In this document: positions 32,801 through 35,800 of the stretch, piece after piece
Position numbering within the stretch: the first letter of the stretch is position 1
Layout of the letters: every line of letters begins with the position of its first letter
Assembly: GCA_965285935.1 (NCBI GenBank)
Contig: OZ260661.1
Coordinates: forward strand, 120,032,001 to 120,096,000
Source of the DNA: Ophelia neglecta
Lineage: Eukaryota
Reading direction: 5' to 3'
DNA: 64,000 nt
Position numbers and translations under genes: made by a program
Notes under the pieces: model-generated
Database searches by the model: none
Seen by the model: only the letters and a program-made list of their open reading frames with translations
What the model was told of the DNA's origin: nothing

Positions 32801-35800
32801 GCCTTCCTGAAATTGTATTAATTAATATATAATTACAACTTTGCAGAAATTGAATTTAATATATAAACATAGATTGCTCTCCTCCTAAAAAATTGTCTGC
32901 TCCTGAATTGCATGATTTCAAAAAATGATCCATATTTCAGTTCTAAGGGAATGATTTGCCATAAACCATATAATTTTGTTTTACCAGCAACTGCTAAAAA
33001 AGCAAAATAAAAAATGAGCTGCTTTCTCAGCACATTTTCAAATGTGAAATTTCATGTGCAGGACAAGTGAATACTATTAGAATGAGGGCTATTCCTTTGA
33101 GAAGGGGGGGGGATAGGAGCTGAGTGGGCAAAAGATTTAAATAAGGTTGCTAGGGTGGAGAGGATTAGTTCCGAATTTAGGGGAAGATTCATGTTATTTG
33201 GCAGCAGGGGAGGAAGGGGGGGGGTTCCATCATTTAAATTAGGTGGGTATAGAAATTGAGCAGAACTGTGGCGCAAAGAACCTTGAAAAAAATTGAACCC
33301 TCTAATTCTTAAACTTTTTAATGGAATAGCCCTGATTTCGTATCTTAATGGCTTTTACAATTAAAAAATTAACAACATAGGCTGATTACCTTTTAGTTGT
33401 GCTATTTGGATGTAGCTCTTTCGAATTACAGGCGTCAATCTAAATATGAATAAATTCAGCCATTGTATTTTAATGTTGAAATCTGTCAAATTTTAAGCTA
33501 ACGTTTAATCATTCTGTTTGTTAGTTTTGCTGTTGGTTTTCTTCTCAGGTGGCTGAGAGAGCATTATACTATTGGAATAATGAGTACATCCTGAGCCTAA
33601 TTAGTGATAATGTTAGCGAAATACTCCCGATAATGTTCCCTGCACTATACAGAACCAAACAACATTGGAACAAGTAGGTATCCGAATGCTGCCCGGTCGA
33701 CTCCCAGATGTTGTTGCTTCTCTCCCTGGATTGCCTAATGGACTGGTCCATCCAAAGTTCTGGATCAATCCATTGGTCACCCACGGGGATGCCTGAACTA
33801 GATGTCATCACAACTATCCCTTGTGTGATTTCATTTTTTCTGTGCCTGTTGTATGCTTGAAAATATGATTGGCCTATAAATTTCTACTGTACATCAATCT
33901 TGCCTCATTTAATTTTGAATCTCTTCAATTTTCTTTCAAATTCGATCATGATAAAAACCTTTTTGTTGTTTAACACTCTGCCCATGCATAATGATTGGTG
34001 TGCAGTGGATATTGGTGGCCTGTCTTTTTCTTAGGTGCTGTAGGTTTGCGGCTGCCTGGGAACACACACAAGAAGCCACCCTACGGCTTAGTATGGCCTC
34101 TAACACGTGGTCAAGCATCTACAACCACCGTCCCATACATTGCACCCTTTGCCTGTAGTTCTAGTTGACTTATCTTATTTTTCTTTGCTGCGTGTTTAGG
34201 TCGCTGAACGAGCCTTATATTTCTGGAATAACGAATATATAGTTAGTTTGATCAGTGACAATGCAAGCACGATTGTTCCTGTCATGTTTCCGGCCCTCTA
34301 CAAGAGCAAAGAGCACTGGAACAAGTAAGCTGCATCCTCCGAGATCACATAGTGTACGATGGGCTCTAGGTTTGCATGGCATCTGCATGGTAGTAGTCAA
34401 CCAGGGTAGCGGCCATTTCTCTCAGATCACATCTTGCGCCTATTATGAATGTTTTTTCTTTCAAGGTGGTAGTATTAAGTTCTAAGGAATTAATTTGTTA
34501 TTGTTCTATCAAGGACATTTGGCAAGAATTCTAAAATAAGCTTGATGTAGCAATTTTAATTCAATTATTTACTCTGCTACCATTACAATCAAAATGGTGT
34601 TTTTCCTTTTGAATTTTACTTTAAATTTGCTACCATATCACCCAAATCTGAACTTGCATTATACAAAATGCCAATAAAGCACCCTAAAGTTTGTAACCTT
34701 TGGCCTCGTTTTTTGCTTTAATGAGTTTGTTCCCTGCACTTCATAATTGGTTTGTAGAGTTTTGAATGCGGTAATGGCACTACAGTGAGAAGGTAAAGAG
34801 CTGTTATTGTAGCATGTCCCATGTGCCAGAACCAGAGCTCATCTCTCGCTCCGTGATCTCTATGTATGGATAGTCTCTCAAGTTACTGTGTATGCACCAC
34901 ACCTGTATGAACAGAGTGTTCATGTACTTCGCACTACCACCGCCACTACTCCTAATGTGTGACATATTAGCCGCAGCCTATCAATTCATTCATTCTGGCT
35001 TTCTCTCCCCCCGTTCTCCACCAATCATCTGCCTGCTCCCCACCTGTTGCCGTGATCCTTGTGTGTGTCAAAGGTCGCCGAGCGTGGGCTGATCTATTTC
35101 CACAACCACTGTTTCATGCAGTTGCTAAGCGACCACCTAGTCACCATAATGCCCCTCCTGTTTCCGGCCTTGTACAGCCAATCCCAGGCCCATTGGAACA
35201 AGTAAGATAGAAACTCACTTCGGTACTGTCGCTACCAGTACTCACCTTTCTTTTGGGAACTGTGGCCTCTGCGCTTTCTCTTGGTGCAGGTTCTACACTT
35301 AACCTGGAAAAAATACAATTTCAACTGGCTGCCGGCGAAAGCTGCATATATTTATGTTTAACATTTCTCATCAGGGGATTAATTTGACTATTGTATTGAG
35401 TAGGTGGTGGCTGAGTAACATATGTGCTTTTGTCTTTCTCTTATCCATTCAGCCCTTCCTATCTAAAAGAAAACTACTGTAAAACCACAAATTATTTACG
35501 GTCATTTAATTGGTGGATTTCATAAAAGGCAAACATGGCTAGTCGCCAGTGTTTGTTATTTGCAGTGTATTACATTTTACTGGGCTCTAACTGGACTCTA
35601 TTCAGTAAACTTTTATCTAAGCGAAAGGGTCCAATGGAGGAAACACCAACCAAAGTAGTAACAAACATTTGTTGTTTTACAGTACCTTAAACCAAAAAGA
35701 AACAGTCTCATACTTATTAGATAATTAATTAATTTTATTTAGTCATTATCTCTAATTTTAACACTTCTGACTAACAACGTAGACTCAAGACTATATAGTT

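Follow-up and report, generated by a model that had tools for sequence, protein, structure and literature searches.

Competing dock pairings have been documented mainly in arthropods and in a few vertebrate genes, and our literature search found none in molluscs. In the available portions of two reports on Drosophila (PMC6071210, PMC4691838), 14-3-3zeta exon 5, Dscam exons 4 and 9, Mhc and MRP are clusters of tandem homologous exons; in the docking systems, several upstream partners pair with the same bases of a site downstream, looping out the intervening exon. The locus described here, in a B56 gene of Ophelia neglecta, resembles these systems in its tandem homologous exons and in having a downstream site with several upstream partners on the same bases, and the predicted pairing would likewise loop out the intervening exon. 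An initial annotation of the window, that is, of the whole 64,000-nt stretch of DNA analysed, had read the locus as a docking system with a selector in each inner intron. Of this reading, the dock with its overlapping partners stands, and it is the best hub found; selector 1 is not supported, so that the expected above-chance selector behind each variable exon but the last is lacking. The B56 exon cluster appears to be unreported, with the proviso that genome-wide lists in literature supplements could already hold it. B56 is absent from the Drosophila and human clusters of at least three exons listed in the available portions of the sources, and PPP2R5 is absent from the main text of PMC9741552 as far as it was available. 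The features discussed below are collected in Table 1.

Table 1. Exons and candidate pairing elements of the cluster (window positions; energies in kcal/mol; P, pairing probability)
Feature	Position	Strand	Basis
Exon 10, constitutive, upstream of the cluster	32394..32563	+	PDB match B56delta; tblastn mapping
11a acceptor junction; same 10-mer at dock 35406-35415	33548..33557	+	only two copies in 64 kb
Variable exon 11a, 125 nt	33549..33673	+	AG/GT; open frame alone
a-b intron element, 11 bp to 11c acceptor tract 35058-35068	34062..34072	+	P 0.95-0.97; 7/300 shuffles
Selector 1, probably not functional as a selector	34074..34084	+	-14.8; hairpin; alleles
Variable exon 11b, 125 nt	34200..34324	+	AG/GT; open frame alone
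b-c stem, 5' arm, holding two TGCATG (34373, 34384)	34341..34392	+	40 bp, -53.3
Dock partner in mid intron b-c, buried inside the b-c stem	34569..34592	+	-22.7; P <1e-12
b-c stem, 3' arm	34810..34860	+	folding and repeat finder
Selector 2 (core 34940-34951), directly 5' of CTAAT 34952-34956	34935..34951	+	-17.4 core, -21.8 extended
Dock partner just 3' of branch-point-like motif	34967..34988	+	-24.2; P 0.01-0.04
Variable exon 11c, 128 nt, divergent	35074..35201	+	AG/GT; codon-position pattern; c-like exon in L030
Strongest dock partner, inside exon 11c	35121..35151	+	26 bp, -35.8
Dock partner downstream of the 11c donor (by 20-40 nt); its pairing would not enclose 11c	35222..35244	+	-22.2
Dock (core 35398-35412), G/U-rich many-partner site, 190-220 nt after 11c	35389..35419	+	best hub, 800 nt searched
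Exon 12, constitutive, downstream of the cluster	36841..36942	+	tblastn mapping

A B56 gene with three tandem homologous exons

The host gene encodes, on the + strand, a PP2A B56 regulatory (targeting) subunit of the gamma/delta type (PPP2R5C/D), and its exons were mapped by tblastn from 4193 to 43352 of the window. Exon 10 has human B56delta as its best PDB match (E 4.5e-29), delta and gamma being the top human matches, and the B56 domain sequence after the variable exon is of the gamma/delta type and distinct from an alpha/epsilon-type paralogue. The latter was found elsewhere on C1 in a search of 762 Mb of the animal's own genome, and it carries this exon once, fused to the next exon. The nearest named proteins are bivalve, which makes a lophotrochozoan the probable source. 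Exons 11a, 11b and 11c are tandem homologues whose lengths are all 2 mod 3, with shared constitutive flanks and intact AG/GT sites; the cluster of variable exons seen in the initial annotation is therefore real. Two candidate terminal coding exons (40505-40842 and 43218-43352, the second matching homologues) could provide alternative C-termini. Elsewhere in the gene, an intron holds a 261-codon open frame (24320-25105, +), which we take to resemble the end of a LINE-type reverse transcriptase, and another observation is a tandem array of units of about 21 nt in an intron (28620-28840).

Combining zero, any two or all three of the copies gives stops in 5/5 cases, and each copy taken alone leaves the frame open (3/3), so that an open protein results only with exactly one copy. 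Exon 11c shares 20-21 of 41 residues with 11a and 11b; compared with 11a, codon position 2 is identical in 33/41 and position 3 in 13/41. Judged by its codons, 11c is divergent yet under coding constraint. Allelic data came from contigs of three DNA runs of one sample, which may be the assembly's own source: 11b and 11c together show 0 variants in 253 nt vs 6.3 expected (two haplotypes, one sample), 11a has a single third-position variant, and the introns differ at 30 places in 1208 nt (contigs of one sample). Searches with the c-type protein returned 1 and 30 candidates, none of which passed, and found no spliced product with a c-type exon, which is weak evidence. In other organisms, the b-type peptide is joined to both flanking exons in three proteins (P0076, P0091, P0096) and the a-type peptide is joined upstream in one (P0041), where single-exon paralogues are a possible source in each case.

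The variable exon aligns to residues 367-408 of human B56alpha. It covers helix 374-386 and E405, the first residue of the EPVA loop (B56alpha numbering), and the residue at the E405 position is Q in 11a, E in 11b and A in 11c.

The relatives of the cluster were sought in proteins and in metagenome contigs. A profile search listed 120 of 4529 B56 proteins, and among the matches listed, 10 proteins contain 11 segments of the a/b type, which is shorter by one residue. A gene model of Tegillarca granosa (P0001) has an a-type copy followed by a b-type copy; it was rejected as a case of co-inclusion in one protein, since a 12-residue filler joins the two exons and is likely an annotation artefact. 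A pattern scan for a/b-type exon ends, blind to 128-nt exons standing alone, gave 63 metagenome loci. Exon a is followed by b in L015, L047/L048 (same contig), L049 and L051, and in L030 b is followed by a 128-nt c-like exon (1191-1318) without the conserved tryptophan, as in 11c. Among the 32 loci with both flanking exons, all complete, 13 have a only, 15 have b only and 4 have both, and a profile search found no further exon copies in them. In each of four assemblies, a complete locus with a only and another with b only were found (L046/L058, L037/L063, L053/L021 and L064/L050); this suggests, with the caveat that one metagenome may contain more than one animal, that the isoforms were split into paralogues by reciprocal exon loss after gene duplication. 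One assembly also holds both an a+b locus (L051) and an a-only locus (L052).

In an exon tree of 41 columns, the a-type peptides group at 92/94 support (not starred) across loci and together with a bivalve protein, and 11c, on its long branch, is left unplaced. The a/b exon pair is old, recurring in the bivalve gene model and in four metagenome contigs, and is far older than the dock. That a and b have been kept either as alternative exons or as separate paralogues argues for different jobs of the two. As for the flanking gene structure, exon 10 is split by an extra intron in many of L005-L067 (e.g. L015, L047, L051), and is single in the window and in L018, L042, L045, L054 and L062.

The dock, its partners and other helices

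The two selectors and the dock are present in the window as annotated, and RNAduplex reproduces both proposed helices, with 12 bp, one bulge and one G-U for selector 2 (-17.4 kcal/mol) and 11 bp with a 2-nt bulge for selector 1 (-14.8 kcal/mol). The comparison with shuffled introns went against the arrangement of one dock with a selector per intron, which is at chance. In this geometry test, among sites within the downstream intron's first 800 nt, the one that pairs best with both upstream introns scored -18.1 and lies at 35328, a different site from the annotated dock (-17.1); this score was matched by 45/100 dinucleotide shuffles and by 53/101 real stretches of equal geometry, and with the downstream intron kept unshuffled 73/100 shuffles did as well. 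With wider windows the annotated dock becomes the best site (-22.1), yet 17/40 shuffles match it. The pairing of intron a-b with the downstream intron is matched by 16/30 shuffles.

What keeps the two-selector geometry at chance is selector 1, which pairs weakly, folds on itself and varies between alleles. Its hairpin (34074-77 with 34085-88) has P 0.88, the net energy of its duplex once both arms have been opened is +0.7 to +3.8 kcal/mol, its pairing probability with the dock is about 1e-10 by folding, and alleles in one run differ at 34083, 34084 and 34086, two of which are within its 11-base core. On these grounds the proposal that pairing of selector 1 selects 11a lacks support. Selector 2 costs 0.3 kcal/mol to open; a variant, 34941 C>T, is found in all three runs and costs about 3 kcal/mol, and when it was tested with two neighbouring variants, P for selector 2 fell from 0.91 to 0.54. 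Taken together, the selector bases have 3 variants in 23 vs 0.57 expected, two of them adjacent and perhaps one event; this load is not like strong constraint, and for the selectors the alleles point rather away from constraint. A single contig covers the dock and shows no differences there.

Counting the dock's partners across the cluster gave 7 at -16 or better vs 1.6 expected; this count was discarded as biased, the dock having been chosen for two of them, and site-free hub tests replaced it. In these tests, run at five values of k, every site of the first 800 downstream bases competes. From the 1st partner to the 5th, no other site outdoes the dock as a hub, and its partners are at 35132, 35231, 34576, 34940 and 34967 (-27.9 to -21.7 kcal/mol). 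Its 1st to 5th partners were reached by 14, 42, 9, 2 and 0 of 300 local 60-nt block shuffles, by 13, 17, 7, 0 and 0 of 81 real stretches, and by 3, 2, 1, 0 and 0 of 500 dock-only shuffles. The many-partner property of the dock is beyond chance, and each single helix is so only marginally; the energies of single duplexes in the cluster are ordinary, the best (-27.9) being reached by many control stretches. All of the top five partners are located in intron b-c, in 11c or just after it, and selector 1 is not among them.

The best partner of the dock over the whole + strand lies inside exon 11c (-23.9), and 3/6 of the best are in or beside 11c. Independently, a repeat finder reports 35121-35150 with 35390-35419 as a gapless inverted repeat of 30 nt, 77% complementary. 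The strength of the duplex between 11c and the dock was matched by 8/1000 shuffles, by 10/154 real stretches and by 9/500 synonymous recodings of 11c. It is the strongest of 50 duplexes between a variable exon and the downstream intron, and on the antisense strand it loses 11 kcal/mol.

No helix of the cluster is stronger than the 40-bp stem of intron b-c, which no shuffle equalled (0/300) and which, among real stretches, is beaten only by a nearby repeat (2/170); neither arm holds an allelic difference, with 1.9 expected. As a cause of exclusivity the stem was rejected: a comparable stem (-44 or better) is found in 7/61 control introns, and 13/61 have one that beats all 15 shuffles. Moreover, with the stem formed, the 11b donor and CTAAT would still be about 110 nt apart, too far for steric blocking. 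The stem is thus a candidate element at most. The TGCATG motifs after b are not common to the other cluster loci, among which GCATG occurs in L047 only. No other copy of intron b-c as a repeat was found in the animal's own genome, and an Rfam search gave two sub-threshold miRNA matches, taken as chance. Two repeats lie further downstream, namely a MITE-like element (35471-35686) with 41-nt terminal inverted arms and nine other matches in the own genome, and a high-copy, GC-rich, self-complementary insertion (36018-36560, depth about 100-fold) in the intron before exon 12.

Local alignment of the window's introns with 15 homologous loci gave only short A/T-rich or repeat matches, none at the dock or the selectors; these loci are too distant for introns to align. 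When 255 kb of homologous loci were scanned with the dock, the strongest pairing (-23.2) fell in intron b-c of L030, the one further locus that carries a c-like exon. L030 has 6 dock-complementary sites at -17 or better in 1.45 kb vs 0.44 per kb overall, which derive partly from a 49-nt tandem duplication and include two exonic ones, and 17 sites, in L030 or in other loci, are at -20 or better; the L030 contig stops 132 nt past c, short of where a dock could be seen. An 11-nt motif with complementarity to the c acceptor junction occurs five times in intron b-c of L030, and pairing with that acceptor is not above shuffles (169/300). The a+b loci without c have no shared dock. Among the five other cluster loci, only L015 shows a pairing of inner intron and downstream region above all shuffles (0/30), and region-pair tests in six cluster loci found 6/55 pairs that beat all 30 shuffles, with about 2 expected and no shared geometry. 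Since competing RNA structures are usually not conserved over long distances, as the available portion of PMC7797038 has it, the comparison with distant loci neither supports nor refutes a function of the dock.

Predicted folds and the readings of the cluster

The winning partner of the dock flips with the folding window, and every unconstrained fold gives either selector 2 or exon 11c. When folding runs from 34325 or 34861 to 35470, the dock pairs with selector 2 (P 0.75 and 0.87, respectively). With a start at 33900 or 34020, the dock's partner is the interior of 11c (P 0.84-1.0), 34090-34097 partly occupies selector 2, and elements of intron a-b cover the 11c acceptor (P 0.95-0.97); the covering element in Table 1 is a low-complexity CA repeat, and 34012-34021 pairs across the acceptor junction. 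The role proposed for selector 2 is thus borne out in part: it is accessible, pairs with the dock in the short folds and would there loop out 11c, but the same pairing has P 0.0008 in the fold from 33900. Both outcomes are predicted to hide 11c. When 11c was held open, the dock took the site after the 11c donor in the fold from 34020 (P 0.36); in shorter folds it stayed on selector 2, with P <0.01 for the site after the donor.

The strongest partner of the dock lies inside 11c and further ones flank it, which fits a silencer of 11c better than a three-way selector. We propose, with a little less than even confidence, that the dock would act as a silencer of the divergent 11c, via selector 2 or via the interior of 11c, and that nonsense-mediated decay would enforce exclusivity by clearing double, triple or zero inclusion. 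On the 11a route, intron a-b would still be present; its elements would mask the 11c acceptor and occupy selector 2 while the dock would pair inside 11c. On the 11b route, intron a-b would be gone, and the dock would pair with selector 2, with 11c looped out. On either route 11c would stay off, and it would be used only if the helices were opened or if the dock were taken by the site just after the 11c donor. The older choice between a and b would do without selector 1 and may depend on splice-site competition and proteins; the two TGCATG motifs after 11b, presumably RBFOX-type, are candidate elements for this choice. A wider picture, in which one dock toggles among an intronic selector, a variable exon and a release site, gating a rare B56 isoform whose targeting surface is altered, atop a bivalve-shared a/b pair that has repeatedly been split into genes, seems to us doubtful.

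It is quite possible that the complementarities are incidental, a G/U-rich site meeting C-rich stretches, and that frame shift with nonsense-mediated decay, splice-site strength and RNA-binding proteins suffice. The chance level of the two-selector geometry, pair energies that are ordinary among control stretches, the 3 variant bases in 23 selector bases vs 0.57 expected, and the abundance of strong stems (13/61 control introns beat all 15 shuffles) are all consistent with incidental pairing, but at k = 4 and 5 the hub stands out against 60-nt block shuffles, dock-only shuffles and real-sequence controls, and synonymous recoding of 11c rarely matches the dock (9/500). Decay alone, in the available portion of PMC6071210, can manage clusters of up to three frame-shifting exons, which also suits incidental pairing.

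The full 14-3-3zeta-type model of the initial annotation, in which selector 1 selects 11a, selector 2 selects 11b and the unpaired state gives 11c, is unlikely. In its favour, the two helices are real and use overlapping bases of the dock, each selector precedes the next acceptor by 115-122 nt and is closely followed by CTAAY (34100, 34952), and selector 1 can be extended to 18 bp (-22.7 kcal/mol); against this stand the positive net energy of selector 1, its P of about 1e-10 and its rank below the top five partners. At 34083, 34084 and 34941 the allelic changes would still allow G-U pairs, as does any such transition opposite a G/U-rich strand. Absence in distant loci weighs little against the model, given the limited conservation described in the available part of PMC7797038, but the a/b pair is far older than the dock, only 1/5 other cluster loci has a notable pairing, and 16/30 shuffles match intron a-b with the downstream intron. 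More improbable still is a reading of the dock as a decoy acceptor, or as what is left of a fourth exon's start (an AG and then codons for V-V-A-E), with partners that pair with exon starts generally. Ten of its bases repeat the 11a acceptor junction, with no third copy in the 64 kb, its complement picks exon-start junctions in L049 and L030, and in L030 an element of intron b-c pairs with the c acceptor (P 0.75). However, no exon similarity follows the dock and the profile search found no extra copy; another AG stands three bases before the candidate acceptor, the pyrimidine tract is poor, and the window's dock partners pair with the 11a junction at -11 to -15 only.

Comparison with known systems

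Silencing of 11c by the dock, the reading we prefer, departs from the Drosophila docking systems in two ways: there is no credible selector after the first exon, and the partners cluster around and inside the last exon, one of them being exonic. Because the test for one selector per exon failed, we do not file the locus in the 14-3-3zeta-type docking family, though it is partly similar.

The encoded surface and the history of the exon also have described counterparts. According to the available portion of PMC6398977, helix 374-386 and the EPVA/TKHG loop of B56alpha/gamma determine centromere vs kinetochore targeting in human B56. The cluster is predicted to swap the stretch behind this targeting difference; human B56 varies the surface between genes, whereas this animal would vary it by splicing. 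The separation of splice isoforms into paralogues after gene duplication is known in vertebrates (PMC4494069, in the part available), and the B56 paralogues are similar in that each keeps one homologous exon; unlike in that study, the B56 cases here are in invertebrate contigs from metagenome assemblies.

In its pairing, the cluster resembles human ATE1 exons 7a/7b, around which several competing helices are described in the available text of PMC7797038. The ATE1 choice is made by hindering a 3' splice site, comparable to the predicted cover of the 11c acceptor; its elements are conserved and were proven by compensatory mutants, whereas the helices here are predicted, and ATE1 has two exons, not three. 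A further likeness is to the hairpin of chicken beta-tropomyosin exon 6B, where, in the part of PMC9198270 available, a structure involving the alternative exon itself modulates inclusion, as is predicted here for 11c; unlike that hairpin, the predicted structure uses a long-range arm from the downstream intron. If true, this would be a compact three-exon case (about 2 kb) outside arthropods and vertebrates that could easily be tested in a minigene.
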